A DNA stretch of 64,000 nt from a virus (taxonomy: Duplodnaviria; Caudoviricetes), in IMG/VR virus record IMGVR_UViG_2654587505_000001, positions 64,001 to 128,000 of that record, one strand, 5' to 3'. Positions 11,201-41,225 of this stretch are shown here, piece after piece (position 1 is the stretch's first letter; the number at the start of each line of letters is the position of its first letter). The notes below the pieces were generated by a model. The model saw only the letters and a program-made list of their open reading frames with translations. It searched no databases and was not told where the DNA came from. The position numbers and the translations under genes are program-made.

Positions 11201-14103
11201 TAACAACAGTATAACAAACCAATGAAAAAGCAATTTTATCTGATAACAGAAGGAGTTAACAAAATGTATGGCGAATGGGTGATGGTTAATTTAATTAATG
11301 AAAAATGGCAAATAACAGACAATTAAAGTAATTTCATAGGGAGTCGATATAAAAATGCTTTACACAGGTGAGAAGGAAATTGAAGAACGTGCTGACGCAT
11401 TCCCGCGACTTTAGTCGTGTGAGGTTCACATGGGTGCTTGGTCTATCGAATTAGCAAATGAAAAGTGATTTCATCATATAACAGAAAAGGAGAAAAATCA
11501 CCATGGTTAAACGTAAAAGATATATGAATGGACTCTATATTGACGGAAAACTTGTAGTATTCACTGGAACTAAATGGGAAGAATTAAGAAAACTTGCAGC
11601 GGAGGAGATTAAAAATGTTTATTAATAGACGATTTATCGAACGAGAATATGTTTTTAATATTGAAAAGAAAAATAATCCATACATATCAGACGAGCAAAT
11701 TAATAACATGCTTGATTCAATGGATTTGGATTGGTGCGACCTCACATTTAAATTTTTTGAACGAAAGAACGGTTGGGATACTGTAATCATTGATAATAAC
11801 ACCAATAACAGAGTGGTAATCGACGAACTGAATGGATTTGCTTTTGATTTTTATATTCGCCAGATTAAGGAATTGTCTATAACACGAGCAAGAAAAGAGA
11901 TACGAGAAAAATTATTTGCAGGAGTTGGAGCATAACAATGAATGAGAATGAGAAAATGGCAAGATTCTTAGAAATGCAGAAACAGCAGCTAGAGACGTTA
12001 TTACAGAACAGCAAAGGGAAGTACGATCAGCGTAAAATTGACATGTTAGAGGTCGAGATTGAAGGTTTGACAGTAAGAATAAGAAGATGGAGAGGTGAGA
12101 TGTGATGAGTACTATTGAATTCGCTGAAAATAGATTGAATGTCAGGTTAACATACCACCAGAAGGAATTATTGACTTTATTGCAAACAAATCCTGATGGA
12201 TGGTATAACAGTTTGTGTATTGAAACTTTGGAAATGAAACAGGTGAGAGAAGTATTTAGCAAGTGGAGAGAAAGTGTGTTAATTGGAGCGTAAAGATTAA
12301 ATTGATGTGAGGTGGAGAAATGTGATTACAATCCCCCAAGGAGTTTCATCATGTTTATACAATGGAATTATGAACAAAATTGAGTGGATTCAAAAACAAA
12401 TTGAATATGATGTAAATAAAAAATATGAATTAAAAAATCATTTGGAGAGAATTTATAAAGATGTAGTCGAAGCCGTTGATTTTTACAATGAGCATTGTAT
12501 CTTATCGGGGAAATATTTAAAAGATGCGTTAGATGAATTGACTTTAAAATATAATGAATATTTAGGATAAAATCGGTAATTCATCGTGAAAAGGAGATAT
12601 TAAAAAATGAATGAGAATACTGTGGGTGCGTTAATCAACTTATTAAAACAATTTAATCCAGATGCAAATATTGTGATTGCTGTAAGGGCAGAAGACGATT
12701 ATCAACCAATCGTAGATGCACAATATAATGAAAATGGAGACGTTGAACTGATATTAGAATAATCCGATAAGATTTCGTATTTGATAAGGAGGATAACTTT
12801 AATGAATAGCGGCAGAATTGATATGTATTTTTGTGTAATTATTATTCAGTTAGCAGTGATAGCAATGATTTTGGCGAATAAATGACCAGTTGATCGGGGA
12901 GTTATGTTGGGATGGAATTGGAATTCGCACTTTATGTATTCATTGGACTAGTTACAATTATGGTCGCTTCAATGGTGTACACGGCAGTATGTTTCTATAG
13001 ATTAAGTAAGAGTATGAAAACAAAAAAATAATATAATTTAGTTTTTTATAGGAAAGGGTGAATTAGTTTTGGATCAGATATTAGAATATCGCATTGTAGT
13101 TGGAAATGACTTGGTGGTGGATTTTTGTTGTGAATGTCCAAGTAAAACGTTTCTAAATACACCTATTGCAGACATCATGAAGACACGCATCTATCTTTAC
13201 GGATATAATGATGACTACTTTTTCAATGTAGTAAACAAGGAATCAAGAGAATTTAAATGTGAATGCGGTAGATGTTATTCTGTGCAATGGACATATGATG
13301 GGGTCAAAGTAGAAAGGCTATGAAACTCGTTTTTTATCGGAAGTTTTATTAAAAGGAGATTGTTAAATATGAATTTCAAACACGGTATAAGCCAATATAG
13401 AATCAACCATGCACGAGATTATGCAAAGTATATTCTAGAGAGCGTTGCAAAAGTTGAATTATTGTTTCACTTATCTCAAGAAGGACATATAGATGAAGTT
13501 AAAGCTGATAACGGAATTAAAAGTATTACCAAAGAAATTGAGCGTAGCACGAAAGAATTGCTTGGTTATTTAGAGTTACGTGATGATATGCGCTAATTCA
13601 CAATTTAACATAATAAAATTAAAAGATAATAAAGCTCGTTTTTCTTCTGAATTGCAGAAAAAATGATAAAATGAGAGGGGTAATATATAAATGAATAAAT
13701 TTCCAAAACAAATTAATAAAGAAGGTGGATGGACGGTATCACCTAAATATCTATAACAAATAAGTAAAGTAATTGCGAAAGTTTAAAAATGATTTACCAT
13801 ACCATGAGCCATCATGAGAGCAAATTAAAATGGTACTACTTGCCATTGAGAGCATCAAGCGGGAGAAGAATCATTATGTTAAAAGAAACTGTTTTTATTG
13901 CTAGAATACAAGATGGTGAGGGCATTATATGGATAGGTGAATTGCAATTTATTGAAAACGGCATAGCAAGAGTTGGATTATTTATGGATAAAGAATCTTG
14001 TGGAATCGATATTTCTGAAAGTGAATTATATAAATATCAAAGAAATGCAATTGATTTTTTAAAGGAATCGGGAATTGACACAAATGAAATAAAGTTTATA
14101 TAA
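8260..14103 (+). other. Array of about 20 small hypothetical ORFs (e.g. 8260-8463, 8541-8789, 9030-9305, 9332-9646, 9671-10012, 10801-11214, 11594-11935, 13069-13323, 13360-13596)
   Basis: Co-oriented short ORFs with RBSs, mostly delimited by the junction site. Confidence 0.75.
11398..11428 (+). mobile_element. Degenerate IS200/IS605 right-end hairpin remnant
   Basis: tcccgcgactttagtcgtgtgaggttca is nearly identical to 25133-25160. Confidence 0.65.
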
Positions 14104-23412: not shown

Positions 23413-23560
23413 AGATAAAAAGTTTCATTTTGATAATTTATTCGCCGCACACTCGTGACTTTAGTCATGAGTAAGGCGAATACATATGTTAAATACAATT
23501 AATCGTTAAACCCCTATAAATATTGACATATGTCAAATACATATATTACATTTATATTGG

Positions 23561-23967
23561 GTGAAAAACGTGGAAATAAAACATGGTAGGGGTTATGTTT
23601 ATTCATTGCAATATCATATTGTATGGTGTGTAAAATATCGAAGAAAAGTGATTGTCGATCAAATAGAAACAAGATTAAGGGAAATGCTAAAAGAAATTGC
23701 AGATTCAAATGGGTTTACGATTATTACTCAAGAGACTATGCCAGATCATATACATTTACTTATCGATTGTTCGCCCCAACATTATATACCAATATAATAA
23801 AAGCACTAAAAGGTAATACAGCAAGATTTTTATTTAAAGAATTCCCTTCCCTTAAATCCAAGTTATGGGGAGGACATTTATGGAACCCATCATATTTTGT
23901 TTCAAGTGTTAGTGATACCACTAAAGAAACAATTGAAAAATATATCAATTCGCAGAAAGAGAGGTGA
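23561..23967 (+). pseudogene. tnpA: HUH Y1 transposase TnpA, frameshifted near 23790
   Basis: YHIVWCVKYRR and PDHIHLL in one frame; KALKG..LWGGHLWNPSYF..YI in another. Confidence 0.85.
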
Positions 23968-23973
23968 GACATC

Positions 23974-25062
23974 TTGCAAAAGGCATATAAGTTTAGAATA
24001 TATCCAAATAAGAAACAAATACAACAAATAAACAAAACTTTTGGTTGTTCTCGTTTTGTATATAATTATTTTCTAGATAAACGAATTAAAATTTATGAAG
24101 AAAACAAAGAAACTTTGTCTTATGGCAAATGTTCATCTATCTTAACTATATTAAAGCAGGAAAAAGAATGGCTCAAAGAAGTGGATAAGTTTGCATTGCA
24201 GAATTCATTAAAAGATTTAGATCGGGCATATCAAAAATTCTTCAAAGAAAAAACTGGATTTCCTAAATTTAAATCTAAACATAATAATAGACAGTCTTAT
24301 CGAACTAATTACACGAATAATAATATTGAAATAAATGAAAATAAAATAAAACTACCTAAACTCGGATGGGTTAAATTTGCAAAATCCAGAGAAGTTGAGG
24401 GTAAAATATTAAATGTAACTATAAGTAAAAATCCAAGTGGAAAATATTTTGCATCTTTTTGTTGTGAAGTTGAAATTGTACAGTTACCAACTTCAGACAA
24501 TAAAATTGGACTAGATTTAGGTATTAAAGATTTTGTTATCAGTTCAAATGGAGACAAGATAGATAACCCAAAACATTTAATTAAATCTGAACAAAAATTA
24601 AAAAATTTACAACGGTCACTTTCACGAAAGAAAAAAGGAAGCAAAAATAGAAATAAAGTAAGAATCAAACTTGCAAAGCAGCATGAAAAAATTTCTAATC
24701 AACGATTGGATTTTCTTCACAAACTGTCAACCAAACTTATTAGCGAAAACCAAGTAATTTATTTGGAAGATTTGAAAGTGAAGAATATGCAACAGAATGA
24801 GCGCTTGGCTAAAAATATAGCAGACGCATCTTGGAGTAAGTTTAGGAACATACTTGAATATAAAGCAAAATGGTATGGAAGAGAAGTAAAGATACTTGAT
24901 CGATGGTTTCCATCCAGTAAAACGTGCTCTTGTTGTGGATTCAAAAATGAAAAATTAACATTGGATATTCGTGAATGGACATGTGAAAATTGTGGTGAAA
25001 ACCATGATCGAGATATTAATGCTGCGGTAAATATCCTTCAACAGGGATTAAAGTTAGCGTAA
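23974..25062 (+). CDS. tnpB: RNA-guided endonuclease TnpB
   Basis: KAYKFRIYP; RuvC motifs GLDLG / LEDL / DRDINAA intact; Zn finger. Confidence 0.95.
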   Translation: MQKAYKFRIYPNKKQIQQINKTFGCSRFVYNYFLDKRIKIYEENKETLSYGKCSSILTILKQEKEWLKEVDKFALQNSLKDLDRAYQKFFKEKTGFPKFKSKHNNRQSYRTNYTNNNIEINENKIKLPKLGWVKFAKSREVEGKILNVTISKNPSGKYFASFCCEVEIVQLPTSDNKIGLDLGIKDFVISSNGDKIDNPKHLIKSEQKLKNLQRSLSRKKKGSKNRNKVRIKLAKQHEKISNQRLDFLHKLSTKLISENQVIYLEDLKVKNMQQNERLAKNIADASWSKFRNILEYKAKWYGREVKILDRWFPSSKTCSCCGFKNEKLTLDIREWTCENCGENHDRDINAAVNILQQGLKLA

Positions 25063-25180
25063 CAAAATTAACCGTAGGAACTACGGGGATAGCTTGCTAA
25101 TTCTATTCTCATTAGAGAATATGGCGCAAGAATCCCGCGACTTTAGTCGTGGGAGGTTCAATGGAAGTGAGAGAATGCTT
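25021..25180 (+). ncRNA. TnpB omega/reRNA (right-end scaffold plus flanking guide)
   Basis: Lies at the IS right end; contains accgtaggaactacggggatagc and the terminal hairpin. The 5' end is approximate. Confidence 0.65.
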
Positions 25181-25647
25181 GAAAATATGATTAATCAATT
25201 AAGTGACGAAGATCTTGAAAAATGTTTTTTAGAAATCGTTGAATGGCGGGAAAGCGGAGTTCTTCAAATGTATAGCATTATTCGTAAACAATGGGAAGAA
25301 TTTAAACAAAAATCCGGAATTGATACATTCCCGATTCATATGATGAGTGAGCCAATTTTGTTTGAGATTGCAAAACGTAAATATAGGGAAGAAGGGATTA
25401 ATGTATGAGCAAACTAATTGGTCACTATAAGAGTAGAACAGGATTCTATCATGCAATTGATAATGGAAGCGATAAGACTTATTGTGGTCTTAGGGTCGCA
25501 GATAATCCTAAGAGAAATTATCCGTATAGTACAAGAGCATGGATTGATTGTGATAAGTGTAAGAAGAAAATACCTGACGATGATGAATAACGATAAAAAG
25601 ATTCTTTTATCTGGATAAAAAAGGAGGAGAAAAATAAAATAAAATAT

Positions 25648-27125: not shown

Positions 27126-28520
27126 GTGTATAACATGTCGGAAACAAAAGAATTAAATGTGGTTGAGTTTTTAACTAACTCCTTTGAAGAAATATCAAAA
27201 GATCGTAAAGCAATGACAGAGATTGATGACTTACTGTTTACTGTTTATAAATTTCCAATTGGATTTTTTCAAGAATTAGTTGTCAATCCTGAAAAATTAG
27301 ATGAATTAGAAGAAGTGGAGTTAATTGTTTTACTCATTGCAATTAACAAAGTAATTAATTTAGAAATGTACAGTCCATATAATTATTTTAGTGAAAATAA
27401 AGTTAAAAAGTCTCTGAAATATAGATATAGCAAGCAAGAAGAACCATTGAATTTTCCACTTATTTATGAAGATATAACTGCTGGAAGCGATGTTGACTGT
27501 ATAACATATTTATCATATCAAGAAATTAAGAGGCATGTGGAACAATTGTGGACTTACAATTTTGCCACACAAAGACTTCCAGTTGAAACTGTTAAGAAAA
27601 ATGGGGAAATAACAAAAAAACCAAAATTATTTAAGAACAGCGTTAAAGAAATTGCCCAATTAATATCTGAGGGAAGATTTAAACCAGATGCTCCAATTGT
27701 TATTAATGTGATGAGAAATGGAGAAGATGAATTCTATATTGATAAAGATAATCATAGACTAATTATTGAAAAAGCCACTGAACAAAATATTGTGGATGGA
27801 TTCCATAGAATCAGTGGTGTATTAGCGGCTTTGGAAAAAGACCCAGATTTAGAAGGATATTTATATGTTACGTTTAGAAACTACACATTAGAAGAAGCGA
27901 GTGAATTTTTAGGTCAGCACAACTCATTTAATGTTTATGATAGAACACATGTGAGGTTCTTAAAAGCTCTTGAACTACCTGATAAGATTGTAAAAGATAT
28001 AGAGTCTAAATCAGATCTTCGTGGTAGAATAGCATATAAAACAGCAGTTGAACGCAAGAAAAATAAAATTACGAATTTTGCTGTCTTATCAAATGCAATT
28101 AGAGATACTTTTAACCCACAAACAGGGAAAGATCGTATTGAAGTAACATATGTCTTAGCTAGATTTTTCGATTACTTGTTAGGTAGTTATCCTGAAGCAT
28201 TTATTGGGACTAAAAACGTAGAAGAAACTTGGAAAAAATCTTGGATCAATCACCATAACACTTTCGTTTTATATGTAACACTTGCTTATGGGTTGTATAA
28301 ACATTTTGGAAAAGATTTCCCGCTTGATGAAATTACTAAAATTGTTGATAGTATTGACTTTACTAAAGAAAATGGACATCAATTCAACGATTTATTAACT
28401 GATGGTGGTACTGCACAAGGTAAAATAAATTCAGATCAGACAAAGCGTAAAATCAGACAGTTCGGAGAGAAGATAATTGCTGATATGTATGGAGCAATAA
28501 AAGAAGAAAATGTTTCATAA
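27126..28520 (+). CDS. ParB/DndB-like protein (SPbeta YopQ-like)
   Basis: YNFATQR and IVDGFHR (DGQHR-type) motifs; directly upstream of the YopR-like gene. Confidence 0.7.
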   Translation: MYNMSETKELNVVEFLTNSFEEISKDRKAMTEIDDLLFTVYKFPIGFFQELVVNPEKLDELEEVELIVLLIAINKVINLEMYSPYNYFSENKVKKSLKYRYSKQEEPLNFPLIYEDITAGSDVDCITYLSYQEIKRHVEQLWTYNFATQRLPVETVKKNGEITKKPKLFKNSVKEIAQLISEGRFKPDAPIVINVMRNGEDEFYIDKDNHRLIIEKATEQNIVDGFHRISGVLAALEKDPDLEGYLYVTFRNYTLEEASEFLGQHNSFNVYDRTHVRFLKALELPDKIVKDIESKSDLRGRIAYKTAVERKKNKITNFAVLSNAIRDTFNPQTGKDRIEVTYVLARFFDYLLGSYPEAFIGTKNVEETWKKSWINHHNTFVLYVTLAYGLYKHFGKDFPLDEITKIVDSIDFTKENGHQFNDLLTDGGTAQGKINSDQTKRKIRQFGEKIIADMYGAIKEENVS

Positions 28521-28528
28521 TAAGAAAG

Positions 28529-29521
28529 GTGGATTTTACAATGTCTAATATGATATATGAAGACAAGATGTATAATGAAGAGATAAAAGAGGAATTTCTG
28601 AGTTATCTTGATAATGAAGGCTATCAAGATAACTACAGAAGATTTTTTAAAATAGCTTATCCCATAGAAAGTCAACTAAAAAAAGACTTATATGATTTTA
28701 CAAGAGATGAACTTAGAGGTTATTTTTATCGTATAATGCCCAAGACAGTTAAAGCAAGTAGAACAATCGTTTCTCATTTAAGTAACTACATTGATTGGGC
28801 GATTGAAAAAGGATATAAAAGAACTAATTTGAATCCATTGTTACTGACAGATAACGAATGGAGAGAGCAGTTCGCACAAAAGCAACTTAAATCATATTGG
28901 ACGGATGCTGAAATCAGAAAAATAGTTGAAAGTAGAGCAAATAATCAAGATGCGATTATTTTGCTTCTGCCATTCAACGGTGTTTATGGTAAGGGTGGTA
29001 GCGAGATATTAAATTTAACCTATAGAAATATTGATAAAAACAATAATCAATTAACACTACATGATTCGGATAGTGACAATTCTTGGAGAACAATAACAGT
29101 CGATGAAGATTTAATCAATGCTTGTCTTAAAGCTTATGAAGAAACGGATTATGAAGTAATGAATGGAAATCCAAGTCCTGATGCAGCAAGAAAAAGCATA
29201 GATTTGGTGGATAATGATTATATTGTTAGATTGGCTAGAACAAGAGTGAATGAAAATGCAAAAGCTGATCATAATATATTGCATAGAAGAATGAGAAAGA
29301 TAGCAGATGAAATTAACGAACCTAATTTTACGACCAAGAATATAGTGTACTCTGGTATGATTGCAATGGCAAAAAATCTTTATTTAGAAAGCGGTAAGTT
29401 AGAGCAAGAAGAGTATGAAAAAATAATGAAACAATTTAATTTTGATACCACAAAGTTGTATAGATATAAAAATGATTTTTTGAATTTAGAAACGATAAAA
29501 GAGTTATACAATTTAGCCTAG
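28529..29521 (+). CDS. Tyrosine-recombinase-fold repressor (SPbeta YopR/MrpR-like), apparently non-catalytic
   Basis: MYNEEIKEEFL, KDLYDF, YIDWA, GVYGKGGSEILNL and KNIVYSGMI; lacks the catalytic Arg and HxLR. Confidence 0.75.
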   Translation: MDFTMSNMIYEDKMYNEEIKEEFLSYLDNEGYQDNYRRFFKIAYPIESQLKKDLYDFTRDELRGYFYRIMPKTVKASRTIVSHLSNYIDWAIEKGYKRTNLNPLLLTDNEWREQFAQKQLKSYWTDAEIRKIVESRANNQDAIILLLPFNGVYGKGGSEILNLTYRNIDKNNNQLTLHDSDSDNSWRTITVDEDLINACLKAYEETDYEVMNGNPSPDAARKSIDLVDNDYIVRLARTRVNENAKADHNILHRRMRKIADEINEPNFTTKNIVYSGMIAMAKNLYLESGKLEQEEYEKIMKQFNFDTTKLYRYKNDFLNLETIKELYNLA

Positions 29522-29624
29522 AATAATCTAGGCTTTTTATATTTTTTAGTTATTGACTGTATAAAGTAAAATATGGTAATATGAAAATAGTTAAATGAAT
29601 AATACATATTAGGGAGATGGTTTT

Positions 29625-31894
29625 GTGAATTATGAAGTTTATGGTAGGCTTGAAGTTCATTTTAAACATTTTGTTGATGCTGATTCTCATAATGAAGCGA
29701 CTGAAAAAGTTGAAAAATTATTAAATGGTATCGCTAAATTGGATGGTGATTTATATATGAAAGATGGAAGAGAGCTACCTATAATTTCTGATCGAGTGAA
29801 AATTTTGTTGTATGATGTGACTAGGGAAGATGAATTATGATAGTTATGAATATAAATAAAAAATGTACATACTATAAAAAAATTAAAAGGAAATTATATT
29901 GATTTTTTAGGTAAAAAATTGTTATTATTGAATTAAGAAGAAAAACGTTGAATATGATGTTAAAATGGTTATTTTATAGGAGGAATTTTTGTATGGTGAA
30001 ATTTAGATTTAGTGTAAGCACTGGATATGTTGGAAGTGAGAAATCAGAAATCATTGAAATTGACGATGAGGATTTGGAAGGACGAAGTGATGAAGAAAGA
30101 GCAAAAGTGATTGACGAATATTTTAATGAATGGATTTGGGAACAACTTTATACTGGCATTGAAGAAATTGAAGAATAGGTAAGCGAAAATAATACATTTA
30201 TTGGGAGATGAGGAGTCATTAAGATGGTGCAGTGTGAAGCATTAGAAGATTTAATTTATCATGGTTGGGGTTATGATGAAGTGGTTATCGCCCAAGGTGG
30301 AATTTTTCAAGCTAAGTATTATGAAGGTGATCCGTATGTAATCGTGAATGCATCTGGTTTTAAAGATGGAGTCGAATTTGTAGGATTAGCAAAAGTAAGA
30401 ATTATTAATGAGGATTGACGACGCTTTGATAAAACACCTTTTATGGGGAGATGAAGAAGGTTAATGGACATATGGAAAGTAGAACAAATAAATCGAGAAG
30501 ATTGGTCGGGAAAAAATAACGCTGTATCAATTAAATTAGTTGATAATGAGTATAGAGATTCTGAAGCGTATATCAAATGGGATGGGTGTATAGATTTTAG
30601 ACAATACTCGAATGGATATTCTCCAGACTCCGAGCACTCTAAAGAAAAAGCGGATAATTGTGACTACATACACATATGTGATATCGACAAAATGATTGAA
30701 AAATTACAAGCAATTAAAAAAGTCGCAGAAGAATATTTTAGCAAAGAAGATTTTGAAGCATATTGGAACACCAAATAAAAAGAATAATTTTATGAGGTGA
30801 TGAAAGTGGCGAACCAACATGTTAAAGAGCGATTTACTCAAGTGCCCTTAGATAAATATAAGGAGTTTTTAAAAGTATTGGATGAGAAATATAATGGTTA
30901 TCGGTATGTTCCAAATGTGATGGCAGAAAGAACAGAAATTTACTATATGGACGATAAAATATATAACAACATGATTGCGGTCAGGTATATGCAAATGTAT
31001 GATGATCCTGAAACTTACTGGATAAAGAAAGAGTTAATCACAGAATAAAATAAATATTTATTAGGAGATGTTATCCAAATGTATAAAGTCTGTTTTGTCG
31101 TAAATGTTTTAGATGATATGGGAGACGTTATGAAAGGATATCTTAAGGTGTTGGAGTTGCCTTTTGTTCCAACAGTAGGAATGAAATTTAAGCAAGGAAT
31201 TAGTGCGTGGATGTGGGAAACAGAACTTGGAGAAGTCGATCCTCCTATTAAAGAAGTGGTTTATAATTTGGATGAAGAAATGTTTTTTTGTCTATTTCAT
31301 ATATACGGACTATCGCTAAGGTCGAGTTTCTGGAAAGAATATAATTTAGAACAAATTGATAGGAGTTTTGAATTCTCTCAGATTAAATTAAGACATTGAA
31401 ATAATACATTTATTGGAAATTGGGGTGAAGAAAGAGTGGGAATGTATTATAGTTTGAGATGCAAACTAAAATTAAAACAGGAGTTTATTCCACAAATCGA
31501 TTCATTACTAAATGATGCTGACGCTGAGTGGAGCAATATAACGGACATCGAATCAATTAAAGATTATAGCACAGATTCGCGCTCTTCTTTCATTCCATTT
31601 GGTGTGTTAGCCTATTCTCCAGACAATTGGGATGATGAGCCGTGGAGAAATGAAATTGAAGATGACATTTGGACGTTTCAATGTAGTGTGAAAACTTCAA
31701 GTACAATACGTTCGTTTTTTAAAAATGTAGTTCCAGTTATCTCCGAAAAATCATTACATATTGAATATTTTTATGAAGAAAATGATTTTGCTGATTTGTA
31801 TGAATTGAGAGATGGAGCGGTCGTTGCAACGGGAGAAAAAATAAAGTATGGATATAAAGATGAAGACCCTTGGCGACTAGTTCAAATAGAATAA
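29625..31894 (+). other. Array of small hypothetical ORFs (29625-29840, 29948-30178, 30224-30418, 30464-30778, 30797-31048, 31079-31399, 31436-31894)
   Basis: RBS-bearing ORFs; promoters at 29553 and 29899; junction sites between them. Confidence 0.75.
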
Positions 31895-31920
31895 AACATT
31901 TATTTGGAAAAGGTGAGATC

Positions 31921-32343
31921 ATGTCAACACTAACAAGAGCTATCATTATGGCTACTGAAGCGCATGAAGGCCAAGTTGATAAAGGTGGTAATCCATACAT
32001 ACTGCATCCATTACGGTTGTTAACTAAAGCAAGTGATGAGAATGCAAGGATTGTTGCTGTGCTGCATGATGTAATTGAAGATACAGATCTTACACTGGAG
32101 CATCTGCGGAAGGAAGGTTTTAACGAGATTATTATTGAAGCCTTGGATTGTTTGACAAGATGTAAAAATGAATCATATGATGAGTTTATTCAAAGGATCA
32201 AATCAAACGACTTAGCACGGTATGTGAAGTTATTGGACTTAGACGATAACAGTGATATTACGAGAATTCAGAATCCCACAGATAAGGATTATGAGCGTTT
32301 GAGGAAGTATAAAAAGGCAGTATCTGATTTATTGTCATTATAA
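31921..32343 (+). CDS. Small alarmone hydrolase-like HD protein (RelA/SpoT HD domain)
   Basis: AHEGQVDKGGNPYILHP...AVLHDVIEDT...VKLLDLDDN. Confidence 0.85.
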   Translation: MSTLTRAIIMATEAHEGQVDKGGNPYILHPLRLLTKASDENARIVAVLHDVIEDTDLTLEHLRKEGFNEIIIEALDCLTRCKNESYDEFIQRIKSNDLARYVKLLDLDDNSDITRIQNPTDKDYERLRKYKKAVSDLLSL

Positions 32344-32385
32344 AATAAGACAACGAAACGAGTCTTTTATTAGGAGATGATATAA

Positions 32386-32853
32386 ATGGGAATGTATACG
32401 AGTTTTCGTTGCAAACTGAAACTAAAAAGAGAGTTTGTTCCAGTTATCGAAGATATGATGTCTAAAGGTTTAGGTTGGAATGAATTGAACACTGACAATG
32501 CGGAAATAAAGGAATTTAGTCTATATAACAGAGCAGATTTTATTCCATATGGAGGTTTGGCTTATGCTCCTGATATGTGGGATCAAGAAAACAGTACCAC
32601 TTGGAAACGTCAGATTGAAAATGGCATTTGGACTTTTCAATGTAGTTGTAAAAATAGTGAAACTTTTAGAGAATTTATGAGAAAAGTAGTTCCTGTTATT
32701 GCAGAGGAATCTGTCCATCTTGAGTTGTTTTATGAGGAAGACATCTATTCTACAATGTACCGACTCATTGATGGAAAAGTTGAGGAAATTGAAGAAAAGA
32801 ATAAATATGGATACGATGACGATGATTATAAGAGTGGATGGTCGTCTCTATAA
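32386..32853 (+). CDS. Hypothetical protein, paralog of 31436-31894
   Basis: MGMYTSFRCKLKLK vs MGMYYSLRCKLKLK; shared FIP.G..AY.PD.WD and WTFQCS. Confidence 0.8.
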   Translation: MGMYTSFRCKLKLKREFVPVIEDMMSKGLGWNELNTDNAEIKEFSLYNRADFIPYGGLAYAPDMWDQENSTTWKRQIENGIWTFQCSCKNSETFREFMRKVVPVIAEESVHLELFYEEDIYSTMYRLIDGKVEEIEEKNKYGYDDDDYKSGWSSL

Positions 32854-33185
32854 CAATTTCTATAGCAAATAAGAGGTAATGAAATCGAAGTTTTATGATA
32901 AACAATTAAATAAAAAATACAAAAATAGTTGTTGTAAGTATTGACTTAGAAAATTGAAAAATGATATATTAACTATGCGAACGAGAGATATATTTATAAG
33001 CCAAATGAGTAAAAAATCATTTCATTAACAAAAAGAAAAGAGGAAATGATGTGACAAATTCACCATTAGTGATTTCAGTTGAGAAGATCATCAAGCAGCT
33101 AGGATTGAGTATAGATAAAGCTCTTGATGCAATTGGAATCAAGAATGGTTTGAAATAGTGATTACTTCATAAAAAATGTGAAAGG

Positions 33186-34148
33186 ATGTGTCGTAAAATG
33201 AACACTAATAAATCTCCACCAACACCGAATTACGGTTCATTTGAGGTAAGAGGGATTGTTACTGGAACATTAAATGAACAACGTTTTTACTCTGAAGGAG
33301 ACAAAAAAAATAATCCTTGGAGAAGAATACAATTTGGGGTGAAAGTAAATCATAATGCTTTCGTTTATGCTGAGTTACTTGGAATAAAAACTCCAAAAGT
33401 GAAATTAATATACCAAGATCCTTTTACTAAAAAAATAGATAAAAATCAACAGTTACTTGTTGATTTTGATGATAGATATAAAGTGAAAAATAATTATCGA
33501 ATACATATGCCAGTAAAATTAAATCTAACAGCAAATAAATTGGAAGATAAAGAATTAATCCCATATGATGCTATCGAGTACATCAAAAATAATCTCAAAG
33601 AAGGTGATTCGGTTTTAATAAGTGGATCGCTTCAGATAGTAGAATATCAAGGTAAGCCACAAGAAAAATACATAATAAACGGAATATATTTGACCGATAA
33701 GATTGATTTTGATTGCAAGAACTATGAACAACAAGCATATTTTAACCAAGAGATTGTATTTACAGGACTCAAATATGACGACTATAGTAAGAAACATAAA
33801 ATTTCATCAAATATAATATATAAAAAAGATAATCATTTAGATTATGTTCCATATGATTTTGCAATTAAAGATGAATATGTTGATGAATTAACTGATTATT
33901 TTAATCATGTCCCGTATGGATCAACAATAAAAATTCATGGACATGTTAATATAAGCGCACCAATGAAACAAATTGAAGGAAGATTTGTTGTTTGTGGAGC
34001 ACCAGTTAAAGAGTTGATAGTTACAGGTGGTAATGCTAGTTCACTTGTGAAATCAAGATATGAAGAAAATGATTTTATAATTATGAAACAAGGAAGTCCA
34101 TTTAAGGAAGCAGAGAAAGAATCTGTTGAAGAATTGCTACCATTTTAG
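33186..34148 (+). CDS. Putative OB-fold ssDNA-binding protein
   Basis: OB-like segments (GDSVLISGSL, GSTIKIHG) and an acidic tail ending EELLPF. Confidence 0.55.
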   Translation: MCRKMNTNKSPPTPNYGSFEVRGIVTGTLNEQRFYSEGDKKNNPWRRIQFGVKVNHNAFVYAELLGIKTPKVKLIYQDPFTKKIDKNQQLLVDFDDRYKVKNNYRIHMPVKLNLTANKLEDKELIPYDAIEYIKNNLKEGDSVLISGSLQIVEYQGKPQEKYIINGIYLTDKIDFDCKNYEQQAYFNQEIVFTGLKYDDYSKKHKISSNIIYKKDNHLDYVPYDFAIKDEYVDELTDYFNHVPYGSTIKIHGHVNISAPMKQIEGRFVVCGAPVKELIVTGGNASSLVKSRYEENDFIIMKQGSPFKEAEKESVEELLPF

Positions 34149-34274
34149 GAGGTGATAAAGCATCACTGACTCGCAGAGAAGTCCTCCAATTGTATAGTTT
34201 GAAGCTAAAATATGGATTTTGAAACATAAAATAAAAAATAAACTATACGATTAATTAGGAGAGATTATATACAT

Positions 34275-35195
34275 ATGACAACTGAAAAAACCATGCGTGA
34301 AGCGACTAATATTGCAGAAGTTGAAGGATTGGTAAAAGATATTCGAATTGAAAAGAAACTTGTTAGTGGTAAAGACGCTATTACAGGTGAGATTGATATT
34401 CAAGTTGAAGAAGGTTCCGTACATACATTCCGAGTGTTCTCTTATAAATTGAACAAAGAAGGAAATGAAAGTGGACTTTATAAAGGTATTGAAACTGTAA
34501 TGAATGAGTATAAGTCTATTGAGAAACATGGAATTGAAGATGCGGATAAAGTTCGCATTACTCAAGGTAAAATTGGTCTGAATGAATATTATGGTCAAGA
34601 TGATCAACTACGTTCTTTCCCACAATTGTCTACAAATTTTATTAATCGAGTTACAGACAACTTTGAACCTAAAGCAAAATTTGAGCTTGAAATGGTTGTA
34701 GCGAGTGTGAAAGAGGAAGTGAAAAACGAAGAAGAAACTGGCCGAGCAATTATTAAAGGTTACGTTCCTCTTTATGGTGGAAAAGTCATCCCTTTTGAAG
34801 TTGTTGTTGCAGAGAAAAAAGCCGTTGACTATGTATTGAATAATTATGAAAAAGGTAACACGGTAACGGTATTCGGAAACATTGTTAACAATACAATTGT
34901 CACAAAAAAAGAAATTGAAGTTGGATTTGGTCAACCCCAAGAGAAGATTACACGTACAACAGTTAGAGAGTATTTGGTTACAGGTGGCACTTCTCCGAAG
35001 GATGAAGATGACGAAGCTGCTTTTGATATGGAATTGATCAAAAAAGCGTTGAAAGAACGTGAGACATATTTGAAAGAATTGAAAGAAAAGAAGAAACAAC
35101 AAGAGGACAAAAAAGATAATGGTAATCCATTTGCTGAAGATAGGAAGAAAGGTAAAGTAACATTCGAGGATGACTCGGACAGCCTTCCATTTTAA
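34275..35195 (+). CDS. ssDNA-binding protein (SPbeta YorF-like)
   Basis: GNTVTVFGNI..GFGQ; tail DDSDSLPF; upstream of the Sak4-like ATPase. Confidence 0.7.
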   Translation: MTTEKTMREATNIAEVEGLVKDIRIEKKLVSGKDAITGEIDIQVEEGSVHTFRVFSYKLNKEGNESGLYKGIETVMNEYKSIEKHGIEDADKVRITQGKIGLNEYYGQDDQLRSFPQLSTNFINRVTDNFEPKAKFELEMVVASVKEEVKNEEETGRAIIKGYVPLYGGKVIPFEVVVAEKKAVDYVLNNYEKGNTVTVFGNIVNNTIVTKKEIEVGFGQPQEKITRTTVREYLVTGGTSPKDEDDEAAFDMELIKKALKERETYLKELKEKKKQQEDKKDNGNPFAEDRKKGKVTFEDDSDSLPF

Positions 35196-35215
35196 AATAG
35201 GAAGGATAATATAGA

Positions 35216-35980
35216 ATGAACAATATACATAATGAGATTGAGCAAGGATTGAAATTGGCGATGGCATCCCTGTCTATTGACAGGATGCCTACCGTTAAAG
35301 AGTTGAGAATGTTGGATATGAAAAAGTTAGAACAAATTATATCACGCAATGGCGGGTTCCTACATTGGGCTAGAAAACTCGATATTCCACAAAAGCAAAT
35401 AAAAAAGAAGTGGAACGATCAAATGGTCGAAGAAGAGATTTTTAACGTAATGAAAGCATTGCAAATTGATAGGATGCCAAGCAGAAGTGAAATTAAAAGC
35501 GTTAAACAAGATGGAGCGTTACATAACAAAATATGTAAAACACTAGGATATAGAGGATGGGCAGAAAAACTAGGGTTAGAAATAAAAGATAGTGAAACTA
35601 AACTTGGTCAAGACGCTGAAGAAATTGCTATCGATTTATTACAATCCAAAGGATTTTCTGTTGAAAGAATGACAGCCAAGCACCCATTTGATTTACTAGT
35701 TAATGACAATGTAAGAGTGGACGTAAAATCTGGCAGAGCATATGATCTACGTGGAAGTAGATGTCACACTTTCGGCATTAGTAAAAAACATGCTTCATGT
35801 GATATTTATCTGATATTTGCTTTATCTGAAGAAGGAGAATTGGAACGAACATTTGTGATTCCAAGTCATAAACTTAAAGTGGTCACACTGTCTATCGGTG
35901 CAAATTCAATGTACGATATTTACAAAGATAGATGGGATTACATTAATACATACGATAAATTTTATCAAAGTGTAATTTGA
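35216..35980 (+). CDS. Putative free-standing endonuclease (HTH repeats plus PD-(D/E)XK)
   Basis: Repeated IDRMP units; PFDLLVN..VDVK. Confidence 0.65.
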   Translation: MNNIHNEIEQGLKLAMASLSIDRMPTVKELRMLDMKKLEQIISRNGGFLHWARKLDIPQKQIKKKWNDQMVEEEIFNVMKALQIDRMPSRSEIKSVKQDGALHNKICKTLGYRGWAEKLGLEIKDSETKLGQDAEEIAIDLLQSKGFSVERMTAKHPFDLLVNDNVRVDVKSGRAYDLRGSRCHTFGISKKHASCDIYLIFALSEEGELERTFVIPSHKLKVVTLSIGANSMYDIYKDRWDYINTYDKFYQSVI

Positions 35981-36017
35981 AAAATAAAACACATAAAAAA
36001 GGAGAATAAATATATAT

Positions 36018-37022
36018 ATGACATTTGATATCTTTAACCCACAAATTTCTGTTGTTGCTAAAGGGCTTGAAGGGAAGGTGTTGCTTGTATATGGCAGTAA
36101 CAACTTGGGTAAGACCAAACAGGCAACACGCATGAAAAAACCATTTCATCTCGGATTTGAGCAAGGTCTTAATGCAATTGCAGGCGTACCTTTTCTTCCG
36201 ATTAATAGTTGGGCAGATTTCAAAAAAATTAATAAACAACTCACAAATCCAAAAACTCTTGATAAAGTAAAAGAACTATATAATACGATTATTTTTGATG
36301 AAGTTTATGCATCTAGTCTTTATTGCCAATATTATATTTGCACTAAATATGATGCTGAAACAATGGGTGATCGAGTAGAAGGCAAGAATTTATATCAAGA
36401 ATATGAACGAGAATATTTGCGTGAAATCGATAAATTGATTAAAGCAGGATTTACCGTTGTTTTCATTGGGCATGCTGAATTTGATAAAGATATGAAGCAA
36501 ATTCGACCCAAAGGAGATAAGCGCAGTATGGGAGTTATCATCGACAACTCTGATATTGTAGTGTATTTAAAAAGCAATGGTGTTGATGATAAAGGAAATG
36601 TAATTAAATCAAGTGCTTATCTTGCTGAAACTCCAGAATATTTTGCTCGTAGTCGTTTTGACTATATTGATACATATATTGAAGAATATACCGCCGAAAA
36701 TCTTGAAAATGTAATTATCAAAGCAATTGAAAAACAAGAAAAGAAAGATGGTATTAAAGCAGTATCGTTTGTTCAACAAAGGGAAACTAAAATCTCCGAG
36801 GAACTGGACTTTGAAACAGTATACAATGAAACTATTGCTACTTGCAAAGAACTTGCTTCAAAAGATAGTCTTGAAACAGTAACAGAGATCATTGAAGAAC
36901 ATCTTGGTAAAGGAAAAAAAGTATCGGATTGTACAAAATCTCAAGTTGGAATTTTAAGTCTGATTCTTGATGATTTGAGAGATAAACTTAAAGAGATTGA
37001 AGACAAAGAAATTGAAGATTAA
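36018..37022 (+). CDS. Sak4/AAA_24-type ATPase (SPbeta YorG-like annealase)
   Basis: YGSNNLGKT, FEQG, IIFDE, VFIGH and ARSRF. Confidence 0.8.
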   Translation: MTFDIFNPQISVVAKGLEGKVLLVYGSNNLGKTKQATRMKKPFHLGFEQGLNAIAGVPFLPINSWADFKKINKQLTNPKTLDKVKELYNTIIFDEVYASSLYCQYYICTKYDAETMGDRVEGKNLYQEYEREYLREIDKLIKAGFTVVFIGHAEFDKDMKQIRPKGDKRSMGVIIDNSDIVVYLKSNGVDDKGNVIKSSAYLAETPEYFARSRFDYIDTYIEEYTAENLENVIIKAIEKQEKKDGIKAVSFVQQRETKISEELDFETVYNETIATCKELASKDSLETVTEIIEEHLGKGKKVSDCTKSQVGILSLILDDLRDKLKEIEDKEIED

Positions 37023-37157
37023 TATCAGCTAATAAAAGATTTTTATTACCATTTTTAGCTGAAAAAAGCTAGTAAAATCAAGCAATTCCTAGAGTGAAAA
37101 AATGTAAAAATAGCATCAATCTCTAGGAATTGCACTATATCACACAAAGGAGATGCC

Positions 37158-37844
37158 ATGACGCAGATTACAAAGCAGTCTCTTGCTATTGTGCTATTGA
37201 GCAGCATTATGATTACATCGTGTACTCCAAAGGCAGGAGAAATGAAAACAGAGAACTTGAAACCCTTATATGAGTCGCATATTGCTGATGAAGGTTTGAG
37301 AAATTATATGAGACTTATTAGTAAAAATATTAGTGAACAAGAAGAACAAAATATCATGGAAGAAGAATCAAAACGTCCAGAAATCAATAATATACCTTTG
37401 TCATCTGAATTGTTAGATTATATATATGAATTATGCAATGAGTATGAAATTCCTTATACATTAGCATTAGCAATTATGGCTGTTGAAAGTGGTTTTAATC
37501 CAAAAGCTATATCACCAACATCAGATTATGGTATAGCTCAGATAAATAAATCAAATATACACAACTTTGCTAGAGCAACAGGAATTGAAAATGTTGATCC
37601 GTTAAACCCTAAACATAACATTCAGATGCAGGTATATTATTTATCATATTTGAAACAAAAATGGTCAGATCCTAAGTATAAATTTAGCGAAGAACAAAAA
37701 TATTTTATGACTGTACTAGCGTATAACAGAGGGGAAACTAAGGCGCTGGAATGGGTCAGAAATAATGGATGGAATAATGCATATGTTAGAAGCGTGACAA
37801 AAGTAAAGGGCATGATTGAAACAAATACATATAAGAATGAGTGA
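37158..37844 (+). CDS. SLT-domain lytic transglycosylase, lipoprotein-like
   Basis: AIMAVESGFNP, YGIAQIN and AYNRG; N-terminal signal with ITSC. Confidence 0.85.
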   Translation: MTQITKQSLAIVLLSSIMITSCTPKAGEMKTENLKPLYESHIADEGLRNYMRLISKNISEQEEQNIMEEESKRPEINNIPLSSELLDYIYELCNEYEIPYTLALAIMAVESGFNPKAISPTSDYGIAQINKSNIHNFARATGIENVDPLNPKHNIQMQVYYLSYLKQKWSDPKYKFSEEQKYFMTVLAYNRGETKALEWVRNNGWNNAYVRSVTKVKGMIETNTYKNE

Positions 37845-38111
37845 TACAATGAGTAAAAATACATATTGGTATCGTATTAGTGCTAATGAACTAATTGTAT
37901 ATACGGAGGATATTAAAACGGCAGAGAAGATACCTGTAAAACCCACAATGACATATATGGAACATAAGAATATGAGGGTAACAGGTTTTCAGTATCATGT
38001 GGAAAATAAGTCAGATGACTGGAGATTAGTCTTTGACGGACTCACGATTGGTAATTCAAACGAGAATAAAAAATATTCAGTAAAGTTAAACAGGAAAGGC
38101 GAGGTGATCGA

Positions 38112-38726
38112 TTGATTATTTTAGTCTTAGAAGGGTTGGATAAATGTGGTAAGCACAGTCAAACAAAATTACTTACTACTCGACTTAAGCAAAATGATTA
38201 TTTGACACTAAAAAGTGAGTTTCATGACTATTCATCTCCAACTGGAGAATTGATTATGAAGTGGCTTACAGGAAAATATAAAGCAGATCAAAAGGTAATA
38301 GAGTTTATCATGTCGGCAGATAAGCAAGCAAAACAATTATGGTTTGAGCAACTTGAAAAACAGTTAGATTATCTTGTTTTAGATAGATATACATTAAGCC
38401 AATATGTGTATGCAAAAGCAAATGGCATAGATCCTAATTGGACAGAGCAATTACAAAAGTACATGAGAAAGCCTGATTTAAATATCATTATCGACATTCC
38501 TGCTCAAGTTAGCATGAATAGAAAAGGAAAGCACAATGACGGTAATAATGACAAGTATGAATCTGACTATGAAATGCTTACTAGAGTTAGGGATAATTAT
38601 TTATCTTATGCCGATTCACATAAAAATGAATGCATCGTATTGAATGGCTTAAAAACGATTGAAGAAGTTCATGAAGATATTTGGAACAAACTTTTGGAAT
38701 TAGGAGTGGTTGAAAATCGAAAATAG
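38112..38726 (+). CDS. tmk: Thymidylate kinase
   Basis: LEGLDKCGKHSQ, LDRYTLSQ and PDL. Confidence 0.9.
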   Translation: MIILVLEGLDKCGKHSQTKLLTTRLKQNDYLTLKSEFHDYSSPTGELIMKWLTGKYKADQKVIEFIMSADKQAKQLWFEQLEKQLDYLVLDRYTLSQYVYAKANGIDPNWTEQLQKYMRKPDLNIIIDIPAQVSMNRKGKHNDGNNDKYESDYEMLTRVRDNYLSYADSHKNECIVLNGLKTIEEVHEDIWNKLLELGVVENRK

Positions 38727-39291
38727 AGTTGGAGATTGGATCGAGACATATACAGGTAAAAAACTATATCCTCTTGATCCACGCACAGAAGAGATTTGTA
38801 TTAAAGATATCGCACACGCTTTATCCTTAATGACTCGCTTTAATGGTCATGGAAGATATTTTTATTCAGTGGCACAACACAGTTTAAATGTGATGTTCGC
38901 CGCTGAGTCAGATGGACATTCCAAAGACATCCAGTTAAAATGTCTGCTTCATGATGCAAGTGAAGCATATATTGCCGATATCGTTTCACCTGCTAAAAGA
39001 TTTATGCCAGAATATAAGAAAATTGAAGAGCAGTTACAAAACACTATATGGAAAACATTTGGAATAGAAGTAACAGAAGAAGATGAAGAGATTATTAAAT
39101 TTTATGATTTAGCAATGTTAGGACTAGAAGCAAAAACAATGATGTATTGTAAGAATTGGGATATTACAAATACGTATTTAATTGAATTAAATGAGAAACA
39201 GCCTTTAGAAATCATTAATTTGAAACAGGAAGATATGGAAGTTATTGAAAGTCGATTTTTGAGTGCTTTTAATTATTTGATGCTGCGGTAA
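38710..39291 (+). CDS. HD-domain 5'-deoxynucleotidase (YfbR/YfdR-like); C-terminus altered by an insertion
   Basis: DIAHALS..RFNGH..YSVAQHS..LLHDASEAY..D. Confidence 0.85.
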   Translation: MKIENRVGDWIETYTGKKLYPLDPRTEEICIKDIAHALSLMTRFNGHGRYFYSVAQHSLNVMFAAESDGHSKDIQLKCLLHDASEAYIADIVSPAKRFMPEYKKIEEQLQNTIWKTFGIEVTEEDEEIIKFYDLAMLGLEAKTMMYCKNWDITNTYLIELNEKQPLEIINLKQEDMEVIESRFLSAFNYLMLR

Positions 39292-39422
39292 ATATCCTTC
39301 AACAGGGATTAAAGTTAGCGTAACAAAATTAACCGTAGGAACTACGGGGATAGCTTGCTAATTCTATTCTCATTAGAGAATATGGTGCAAGAATCCCGCG
39401 ACTTTAGTCGTGGGAGGTTCAA
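39282..39422 (+). mobile_element. 141-bp stand-alone copy of the IS200/IS605 right end/omegaRNA
   Basis: Matches 25021-25161 with one visible mismatch; inserted directly after TTGAT (39277-39281). Confidence 0.9.
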
Positions 39423-39524
39423 GAAGAAATGTTCTTTGAAATAATTAGGATTTATAAGAGTTTTTAAAGAAGATAAACATAATAAAATTTCGGTTTTATT
39501 AGGTATTGTGAGAGGAGAAATTAT

Positions 39525-40628
39525 TTGAACGGTAAGATTAATAAAGGCGACAATTTAAAGATTATGAAGAAAATTCAAGATAATTACGTTGACTCGTGCA
39601 TCAGTGATTTTCCATATTGGCTTGAGTTTATGGGAAAGTATTGGGACAAAGGAAGTCCTTATGAATGGACTTTACCAAGAGCAAAAGAGCTTTATAGAAT
39701 TATTAAACCCGGGGGATATGTTCTAATTTTTGGTCATCCGAAAACAAATCATCGTATGAAATGTGCGTTTGAAGATGTAGGATTTCAGATTGTTGACGAG
39801 ATTGATTGGTTATATATGACTGGATTTCCTAAGAATCAGGATATCGGAAAATTATTTGACAAACGAGCAGGAGTAGAAAGAGAAATAATTGGTTTTGTTC
39901 CAACTTCAAAAGGAATTCGTCCCGACAGTCATAATCTCATAGGTGATAAATGGGAACACAAAGGTCATCCAATAACAGTGCCAACAACCGAATTAGCAAA
40001 ACAATGGGACGGTTGGAAGACAGCGGGATTAAAGCCAGCAAAAGAACCTATTACAATTTTCCAAAAACCGCTTGAAGGCACATATTGCGACAATATTGAG
40101 AAGTATGGGTGTGGTGGGATGAACATTGATGCTTGCCGAATTCCGACTGACGATAAATTGGTTAGGCCGAGCATTCAAAGATTTGACAATGAAGTTTATG
40201 GAAAAGGACTTGGTGCAGGAATACAAGTGGAACCAGAAGGTAGATTTCCGATGAATATCATTACTTTAGACGAATCTATTTGGTTTAGCAAATATGCAAA
40301 TCCCTTTCCACAGTGGACGGATCAAGAGCTAAGTAAAAAGACGCAAACCAAAGAAAAGACACTAACAGACGGAACAAAAAACACTCATCCTACAGTTAAA
40401 CCTGTAGAACTGATTAAATGGTTGATTAAACTTGTTACACCTAAAGATGGGGTAACAATTGATATCGCGGCTGGAAGTTGTACTCATGGAGTAGCATGTG
40501 AAGAGTTAAACAAAGAAGGATATAGTCTGAAATGGTGCAATATCGAAATGGACGAAGATGAAAAAGGAAATAGTTTAGGATACATAGATATCGGTAAAAA
40601 GAGGTTAATGCAATTATTTAATACATAA
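39525..40628 (+). CDS. N4/N6 DNA methyltransferase (beta class)
   Basis: SDFPY, HPTVKP, DIAAGS. Confidence 0.85.
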   Translation: MNGKINKGDNLKIMKKIQDNYVDSCISDFPYWLEFMGKYWDKGSPYEWTLPRAKELYRIIKPGGYVLIFGHPKTNHRMKCAFEDVGFQIVDEIDWLYMTGFPKNQDIGKLFDKRAGVEREIIGFVPTSKGIRPDSHNLIGDKWEHKGHPITVPTTELAKQWDGWKTAGLKPAKEPITIFQKPLEGTYCDNIEKYGCGGMNIDACRIPTDDKLVRPSIQRFDNEVYGKGLGAGIQVEPEGRFPMNIITLDESIWFSKYANPFPQWTDQELSKKTQTKEKTLTDGTKNTHPTVKPVELIKWLIKLVTPKDGVTIDIAAGSCTHGVACEELNKEGYSLKWCNIEMDEDEKGNSLGYIDIGKKRLMQLFNT

Positions 40629-40673
40629 AAAATGTTAATTAAAGTAGATATTTATTGGGTGAGGTGATAGGTA

Positions 40674-41225
40674 ATTGCTAAAACGGAATTAACAACAAAA
40701 CTTGAAAAATCAATTTACAGTACAACAAATAAACAAGGAACGTTCGGCTGCTTTGAAGTTACAATTGGTTGGTTTGGTAACGAAAGAGTTGACTACATTA
40801 CATATGATACAAAGAGAATTTGGTGGTGCTATGAAATAAAAGTATCAAAAAGCGATTTCTATAGCAAATCAAAGAAAACCTTTGTTGGACATTTCAACTA
40901 CTTCGTGATGCCGAAGGAACTGTACGAAGAAGTCAAGAGTGATATTTCAGAGCATGTAGGCGTTTATGCAGAAGGCAGTTATTCAATCAAAAAGGCTAAG
41001 AAGGTTGAATTGGGCGTTGATGAGCAGATATTAAAGGACTCGATGATTCGATCTTTAGCAAGGGATGTAGAAAAGCTTTTTAGGAGTGAAAATCAATCAT
41101 ATGTAGACAGAATGAACCACAGGATTAGAGAATTAGAAAAGGATAGAGATAATTGGCGAGACAAGTATCAGAGATTGATGAATATTGGATATGAGAAATA
41201 TGGAAGTGGATGGTATAGAGAGTAA
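40674..41225 (+). CDS. PD-(D/E)XK nuclease-like protein (MmcB-like), probable ATT start
   Basis: Frame is open from ATT at 40674 after GAGGTG; ERVDY...YEIKVSKSDF...NYFVMP. Confidence 0.65.
   Translation: MAKTELTTKLEKSIYSTTNKQGTFGCFEVTIGWFGNERVDYITYDTKRIWWCYEIKVSKSDFYSKSKKTFVGHFNYFVMPKELYEEVKSDISEHVGVYAEGSYSIKKAKKVELGVDEQILKDSMIRSLARDVEKLFRSENQSYVDRMNHRIRELEKDRDNWRDKYQRLMNIGYEKYGSGWYRE

Follow-up and report, generated by a model that had tools for sequence, protein, structure and literature searches.

The window, as the whole stretch of DNA analysed here is called, comprises 64,000 nt and corresponds to bases 64001–128000 of a 166,613-base IMG/VR record that is classed as a provirus and is 89% complete. 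A gene for an HD (YfbR-like) hydrolase is followed by a DNA methylase gene, and the 3′ end of the hydrolase gene runs into a 141-nt segment that duplicates the right end of an ISDra2-like IS200/IS605 element (Table 1). The hydrolase matched PF12917 with E = 4e-5, which is below the cut-off, and JGI names its homologues YfbR-like HD hydrolases. The protein has a single occurrence in the protein collection, on a contig of 5.2 Mb, and the record therefore represents a prophage within a bacterial chromosome. Megablast of positions 38100–40700 and 23200–25400 against GenBank phages gave zero matches, and a distant-mode search of the same phages gave matches limited to the methylase and thymidylate-kinase genes (70–73% identity), with no close relative. 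No relative of the HD protein was found in viral_contigs; among 5.8 billion proteins searched with it the top non-self match was 51% identical, and a search aimed at shorter, C-terminal fragments found none.

Table 1. Positions of the parent element, the solo right-end copy and related features. Coordinates are those of the window unless a handle precedes them.
Feature	Position	Strand	Remarks
TTGAT before parent	23430-23434		
Parent ISDra2-like IS200/IS605 element	23435..25161	+	right end terminates in TCAA at 25161
Parent left-end hairpin	23452-23471		
Parent tnpA	23561-23967		frameshifted
Parent tnpB	23974-25062		362 aa
TTAAT	25016..25020	+	inside tnpB (D-I-N codons); adjoins the 5′ side of the copied segment in the parent
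Parent right-end hairpin	25134-25153		
Parent's own predicted guide, TGGAAGTGAGAGAATG	25162..25177	+	
HD / YfbR-like hydrolase gene	38710..39291	+	last codons and stop (LR*) come from the copy
TTGAT before copy	39277..39281	+	directly 5′ of the copy; same pentamer before the full element; ISDra2 TAM and TnpA target
Solo right-end copy, 141 nt	39282..39422	+	final 14 tnpB codons and stop, non-coding right end, TCAA terminus
Complete conserved omegaRNA scaffold	39330..39422	+	stem A, nested stems B and C, terminal right-end hairpin 39395-39414
Predicted 16-nt guide, GAAGAAATGTTCTTTG	39423..39438	+	flank right after the right end; position rule from PMC8612924
Segment absent from X2	39284..39444	+	161 nt: all but the first 2 nt of the copy, and the 22-nt flank as far as the restored-reading stop
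Hairpin-only right-end fragment	11382..11429	+	28-nt core 11401-11428, 96% identical to parent; R1 28.1 bits, E 6.9e-5
Second tnpB-like gene in window	55904-57139		
Other tnpB-like locus	G000 129422-129631		
Other tnpB-like locus	G000 157249-157440		
Scaffold without tnpB and left-end hairpin	L045:400-509	-	viral
Scaffold without tnpB and left-end hairpin	L054:400-509	-	viral
Scaffold without tnpB and left-end hairpin	L095:511-628	+	Acidaminococcaceae MAG

The complete element, referred to below as the parent, has the organization of an IS200/IS605 element of the ISDra2 type: it contains genes for a Y1 (HUH) TnpA and a TnpB, has imperfect subterminal hairpins at both ends, and is inserted 3′ of TTGAT. 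The two hairpins have a TTTA loop and a G-T mismatch in common, and the flanks contain no direct repeat. The initial annotation of this DNA had described tnpA as frameshifted and tnpB as intact, and both descriptions hold. The Pfam Y1_Tnp match is split over two frames, with positions 2–64 in 23561–23797 and positions 66–121 in 23623–23967, two TAA stops fall within it, and a record-wide search located no other Y1 transposase match. The tnpB reading frame is open throughout, and OrfB_IS605, Cas12f1-like_TNB and HTH_OrfB_IS605 were all matched. Comparison of the parent TnpB with the ISDra2 TnpB structures 8bf8 and 8exa gave E = 5.7e-115, and alignment to 9yyg showed conservation of D, E, D and four cysteines, at D191, E278, D361, C331, C334 and C351, with the fourth cysteine placed at chain position 354 by hand count on the printed alignment. 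D191, E278 and D361 constitute the catalytic centre of ISDra2 TnpB (Nakagawa et al., PMC10097598). ISDra2 TnpB has 408 residues, compared with 362 here, and its C-terminal tail is absent from the present protein; most of the RNA scaffold described below is therefore located after the stop codon. ISDra2 inserts 3′ of TTGAT, which is also the TAM of its TnpB (PMC8612924, PMC10097598), and the TnpB guide of about 16 nt is derived from the flank of the element (PMC8612924), in agreement with the earlier statement that TnpB guides come from the right-end flank and target a TAM.

The prophage record contains four TnpB-like genes, every one with a TNB-domain match over the cut-off, and a single, broken tnpA. 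An Rfam match to RAGATH-18 (53.4 bits) at 57187–57252 begins 48 nt after the second in-window tnpB and may be the guide-RNA scaffold of that adjoining gene. The right ends of the other three tnpB-like genes have no duplicates within the record.

A repeat finder identified positions 25016–25161 and 39277–39422 as a direct repeat of 146 nt with two differences (blastn, 98.6% identity, E = 5.6e-60; genome search, E = 6.5e-69). Reading of the sequence, the repeat finder and blastn all confirmed that 39282–39422 copies 25021–25161 with one mismatch, as first annotated: 140 of the 141 bases are identical, the exception being C at 25125 and T at 39386. This difference recurs as T>C at 39386 in contigs of the sequencing runs described below. 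The second difference lies directly before the shared block, where the parent has TTAAT and the copy has TTGAT. The block begins within the tnpB reading frame (codons ...NAAVNILQQGLKLA*) and finishes with ...GGTTCAA at both locations, after which the flanks diverge into TGGAAGTG... next to the parent and GAAGAAATG... next to the copy. The pentamer reported to precede both the full element and the copy was found at 23430–23434 and 39277–39281. The + strand of the 166,613 bases contains TTGAT 479 times, so that a random junction would follow it in about 0.3% of cases, and its presence at both junctions is unlikely to be due to chance.

Searches of public sequencing runs identified four holders of the sequence, among which no RNA run is listed. 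One of them, X1, bears on whether the second copy was created by an assembler that placed the same repeat twice. Short-read graphs do collapse repeats, and X1 contains the repeat as a separate 143-nt contig. In X1, however, contigs join the repeat to four different flanking sequences (records 1, 3 and 4, record 1 at both of its ends); record 1 is 14,178 nt long, the exact distance from 25132 to 39309; and the two copies differ at one base. The repeat contig also has a depth of 213.6 against 120–129 for its neighbours, a figure that is not a copy number and that gives non-independent support for two copies, X1 being probably the source sample. An assembly artefact is scarcely credible in light of these data.

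To evaluate the copy as an RNA, related right ends were collected from 34 viral_contigs stretches that contain a 25-nt hairpin core and from 27 genome_contigs stretches that contain a 28-nt core, which yielded 30 distinct right ends in which the first stem was recognisable. The set that was folded (n = 14) consisted of the parent and 13 TnpB-linked right ends of equally short architecture; gene-less and solo right ends, long-insert types and near-duplicates were left out. RNAalifold returned 22 pairs in four helices, half of which (11/22) exhibit changes on both sides. The stems are paired in 98.4% of alignment cells, and the observed pairing or covariation score was reached by none of 500 column shuffles; sliding the partners by 1–3 columns lowered pairing to 33–46% (45.5% at most). 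Three stems make up the scaffold, and they covary strongly across relatives. All conserved pairs are located within 25066–25161, equivalent to 39327–39422 in the copy, and the lone mismatch falls outside them.

The covariance model R1, for which this alignment served as the basis, matched 25069–25161 and 39330–39422 over its full length (positions 1–93 of 93) with 104.7 bits each, and these were the only two full-length scaffolds in the 167,813 bases of the record that were searched. Such a score is expected for the copy as a near-twin of the parent, which was itself used for training; what is informative is the absence of further matches. The segment had been proposed to be a guide-RNA end without a gene or a left end, a view to which an incomplete 5′ scaffold would have been fatal, and covariation together with R1 located the whole scaffold, 5′ part included. 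No Rfam family covers it: RAGATH-18 is the only gathering-level match in the window and lies elsewhere, and a permissive scan gave chance-level matches only. Positions -231 to -117 of the ISDra2 omegaRNA are described as dispensable (PMC10097598), such that a 116-nt scaffold suffices there, compared with the 141 nt retained in the copy. The copy thus contains a complete, covariation-backed TnpB omegaRNA (reRNA) scaffold that ends in TCAA and is followed by a 16-nt flank.

Within the same collection of right ends, a TnpB C-terminus lies upstream in 20 of the 34 viral stretches (tblastn). Among the 14 others, three are cut by contig ends (L038, L039, L062) and L044 has a TNB domain; open frames in L040, L058 and L059 and in L064 and L067 were read by eye as divergent TnpB ends, an assignment that Pfam left unconfirmed. 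L037 and L042 are gene-less and resemble PATEs, with about 165 nt between their left-end and right-end hairpins. L045 and L054 consist of the scaffold only, preceded by unrelated upstream DNA, which in L054 is an Hsp20 gene. Of the genomic stretches, TnpB precedes the right end in seven, a contig end truncates 13, and another seven have 600 nt of upstream sequence without TnpB. One of the last seven, L095, has a full scaffold downstream of a dihydrouridine synthase gene, with its start at, or only a few bases away from, a TTGAT. Between L045 and L054 the first stem varies through compensating changes, a pattern suggestive of separate parents or of constraint that still acts. In L080 (603–630) and, on the - strand, in L088, TTGAACCT before the right-end hairpin is the reverse complement of AGGTTCAA after it; the result is a 36-nt near-perfect palindrome without a scaffold, located at the 3′ ends of Ada/metallo-beta-lactamase and Gp49-like genes, and possibly a minimal palindrome-only element.

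No left end accompanies the copy. When the hairpin core GACTTTAGTC was searched over the whole record with up to one mismatch, none was found just upstream of 39282, and R1 agreed. Within the window the core occurs at 2075, 11407, 23457, 25139 and 39400, with some further sites outside the window; an additional one-mismatch match at 32512 is unrelated. The site at 11407 belongs to a fragment that has none of the omegaRNA stems. This fragment lies inside a short open frame, to which it adds a stop codon; the stretch of 27 nt that starts with the hairpin and runs to ...GGTTCA keeps the frame, and without it two small frames would be joined. The hairpin at 2055–2092 is intergenic, shares the GACTTTAGT loop region (CCACCCATGACTTTAGTTATGGGTGG), gives weak R1 matches of about 16–17 bits, and may mark the terminus of another element of the IS200/IS605 type.

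TnpA is reported to choose its insertion site through a left-end DNA guide that pairs with the TAM (PMC10055086). Lacking the left-end hairpin and the DNA guide, the copy should be neither excised nor inserted by TnpA. Mobilisable non-autonomous derivatives, such as PATEs or mobilised omegaRNAs, are characterized by a left end together with a right end and by multiple copies, whereas a right end alone is present here, as one solo copy in the 166.6-kb record. The initial annotation had proposed that TnpA released 141 nt from the parent by cutting its right end and a cryptic TTAAT, and inserted this piece after TTGAT, generating an RNA-only parasite that spreads by TnpB-mediated homing. TTAAT is one position off TTGAT and lies directly before the segment in the parent, the copy adjoins TTGAT, and other omegaRNA copies without TnpB and a left end exist (L045, L054 and L095, the last starting at or near TTGAT). 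Both left-end cleavage and target choice nevertheless need the missing left-end hairpin and DNA guide (PMC10055086), and the resident tnpA, besides which the record has no Y1 transposase match, is frameshifted. L045 and L054 are not preceded by TTGAT, the copy has no other sites in the record and its lineage is absent from viral_contigs, and the indel found in a relative (see below) is not 141 nt long. We regard this route as highly improbable; the cryptic TTAAT cut would not provide TnpA with a means of choosing a target, and a single copy without a left end looks immobile rather than like a mobile RNA-only parasite.

Elements that supply guide RNA without a gene are nevertheless established. 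Stand-alone omegaRNAs that serve OMEGA effectors in trans have been described (Altae-Tran et al., 2021, as presented in PMC10691335), so the supply of a guide to TnpB in trans, which had also been suggested for this locus, has precedent in the literature. The copy resembles them in consisting of a scaffold and a guide without an adjoining effector or transposase, in having a compatible effector in the same genome, and in that it would add a target without duplication of the system. Stand-alone omegaRNAs are said in the same source to be "evidently mobilized", whereas the copy is single, has no left end and looks immobile. PATE-like gene-less IS200/IS605 elements of Geobacillus stearothermophilus often encode omegaRNAs that depend on a TnpB provided in trans (Meers et al., PMC10055086), but PATEs retain both ends and are movable by TnpA, and the copy has the right end only. 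ISDra2 itself is similar with respect to its close TnpB homologue, the TTGAT before element and copy, and the right-end scaffold followed by a flank-derived guide; it differs in that the RNA-coding end stands alone here, 14 kb from tnpB and without a left end. Homing between phages, including that by free-standing homing endonucleases, involves cutting of an insert-free allele and its repair from the insert-bearing genome (PMC13565253), and Table 1 of that paper lists "transposon non-restorative homing" between coinfecting phages as a type. For the present locus homing is a proposal only, with nuclease and insert unlinked (14 kb apart) and the sole relative allele a non-target. Trans-acting stand-alone omegaRNAs, PATEs and transposon homing are thus already in print as concepts, and the present case is a right-end-only, single-copy one.

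The predicted guide GAAGAAATGTTCTTTG is unique in the 166.6-kb record when up to one mismatch in 12 nt or three in 16 nt are allowed, save for unrelated coding matches. A near-match at 31274 was rejected as due to chance, being within an unrelated open reading frame. Removal of 39282–39422 restores an HD gene end reading ...YLMKKCSLK*, as the initial annotation had deduced; the corresponding allele was found in no relative. The vacant site (TTGAT followed by GAAGAAATG...) was likewise not found: the allele in run X2, described next, does not have this sequence, and scans of metagenome_contigs and viral_contigs gave 0 matches each for the 23-mer of the left flank of the copy and for the 22-mer of its right flank. 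A 21-mer specific to the lineage of the copy was also absent from viral_contigs. The flank and the upstream TTGAT expected of an omegaRNA with a 3′ guide are present at the locus, and a vacant site of that sequence was seen nowhere.

Run X2 contains a related phage, with 3–7% differences in the flanking contigs. A 707-nt X2 contig (record 9) bridges 39193–39283 and 39445–39847, skipping 161 nt with a joint ambiguity of 1. It reads ...TTGATGC joined to TTAGGATT..., which would encode an HD protein ending ...YLMLRIYKSF*, and its match to the window is perfect for 43 nt on the left side of the joint and for 39 nt on the right side. The copy is thus an insertion/deletion polymorphism that is absent from one relative. 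X2 has neither the copy nor GAAGAAATGTTCTTTGAAATAA, which comprises the predicted protospacer and the restored gene end; its TTGAT is followed by GCTTAGG..., and the X2 allele would not be cut. Relatives' uninterrupted HD alleles had been put forward as the targets of the second guide, with a search for such an empty allele as a check. That search yielded one relative, which differs by 161 nt rather than 141, and the only allele seen is without the 22-nt flank that holds the protospacer. Another run, X3, provides a single contig about 96% identical to the window, for which an RNA origin is a guess; it covers 38875–39250 and ends before the copy. It terminates at 39250 in 24 letters without a match here, which look like a library adaptor, and is uninformative on the copy.

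Three histories would fit the X2 allele. Loss of 161 nt from a copy-bearing allele would require one step and would account for the GC kept at the joint. A separately diverged empty allele would require two steps. In the remaining account, X2 (TTGATGCTTAGG) has the ancestral form and the window would have gained the 161 nt, consisting of the right end and 22 nt of foreign right flank (GAAGAAATGTTC...) from an element copy elsewhere, by microhomology-mediated recombination or template switching between the recipient TTGATGCT and the donor TTAATGCT, which share 7 of 8 positions. In that case the old site of the donor in another genome, and not the HD gene, would be the target of the guide. The size of the indel and the retention at the X2 joint of GC(T), the first bases of the copy, are as expected from such a gain; the identity of 43 nt and 39 nt on the two sides, compared with about 3–7% divergence farther out, points to a recent event, and the single change in 141 indicates that the copy arose after the two phages diverged. 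On the other hand, no donor is known, the 22-mer being absent from the rest of the 166.6-kb record, from viral_contigs and from metagenome_contigs; a one-step 161-nt deletion from a window-like allele gives the X2 joint equally well; and TTGAT at the junction becomes a coincidence. We consider a gain of this kind unlikely. An attempt to decide from homologues which end is ancestral (...MKKCSLK* or ...MLRIYKSF*) was abandoned because the C-termini are too variable: ten retrieved HD homologues of 181–208 residues have C-terminal tails that vary in both length and sequence.

The account that we prefer, with a probability of roughly 0.5, is that the copy is a solo right-end remnant, a by-product of transposition that is guide-competent in sequence and not an adapted weapon. 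A copy that still had its left end would have undergone normal TnpA integration 3′ of the TTGAT that lies at the HD gene end. The left 1,586 bp, comprising the left end, tnpA and most of tnpB, would then have been lost, with the right breakpoint of the loss falling after the TAM-like TTAAT inside tnpB. Several findings count against this origin. The predicted empty allele was absent everywhere searched. The left breakpoint of the deletion is the exact left boundary of the element, which needs TnpA chemistry or the likeness of TTGAT and TTAAT as an explanation. A perfect TTGAT about 125 nt farther upstream in tnpB was unused. Since X2 differs by 161 nt, the 22-nt flank included, it does not demonstrate a simple TnpA insertion into an X2-like allele, and this origin obliges one to regard X2 as a derivative that lost 161 nt or as an allele that diverged separately.

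With regard to function, transcription of the remnant by read-through is likely, given its position on the coding strand between the HD and DNA methylase genes and the finding of no + strand terminator-like site between the HD gene and the copy. A promoter scan gave no enrichment, with 10 promoter-like sites against 14.7 expected and none outstanding. TnpB produces omegaRNA by 5′ processing (PMC10278001), and the parent TnpB would itself trim the 5′ end of the transcript. An intact ISDra2-like TnpB is encoded 14 kb from the copy; because the scaffold of the copy is that of the parent save for one base outside the conserved stems, this protein could load the RNA of the copy and use it as a second guide, giving a second specificity of TTGAT followed by GAAGAAATGTTCTTTG. 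An reRNA supplied from a separate plasmid is reported to programme ISDra2 TnpB (PMC8612924).

The same remnant might instead be inert, read through as an mRNA tail or 3′ UTR that is never loaded, and persisting because it is recent and harmless. One change in 141, and the replacement of no more than a few terminal residues in a protein tail that is variable, agree with this view, as the variability of the HD homologue C-termini implies that the insertion should cost little. Decay of elements is ongoing in this record, in which the hairpin-only fragment at 11382–11429 is clearly dead and tnpA is frameshifted, and the sole relative allele seen, that of X2, is a non-target. Nothing in the sequence bars loading, however: the scaffold is complete, with one base different and that base outside the conserved stems, the cognate TnpB is intact in the record, and trans loading is documented in other systems (PMC10691335, PMC8612924). 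Inertness is a possibility that we place on the unlikely side. At the opposite extreme, the copy and its 22-nt flank would be a working, unlinked second guide cassette directed against rival phages or alleles, with X2 as an escape or counter-selected form, the whole constituting a natural two-guide OMEGA system that drives phage–phage homing or exclusion; this we judge to be decidedly unlikely.

If the RNA is not loaded, the copy is ordinary transposon debris. In either case it adds to the recurrence of right-end-only omegaRNA copies in other phage and bacterial contigs, and it offers a cheap test pair in which one TnpB can be combined with two guides and with a natural non-target allele. Should the RNA be produced and loaded, the decay of a transposon copy would have yielded a free guide able to redirect a nuclease whose gene lies elsewhere. 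This would represent the simplest way in nature for a one-nuclease, one-guide arrangement to move towards multi-guide systems, and possibly a tool for competition among related phages.
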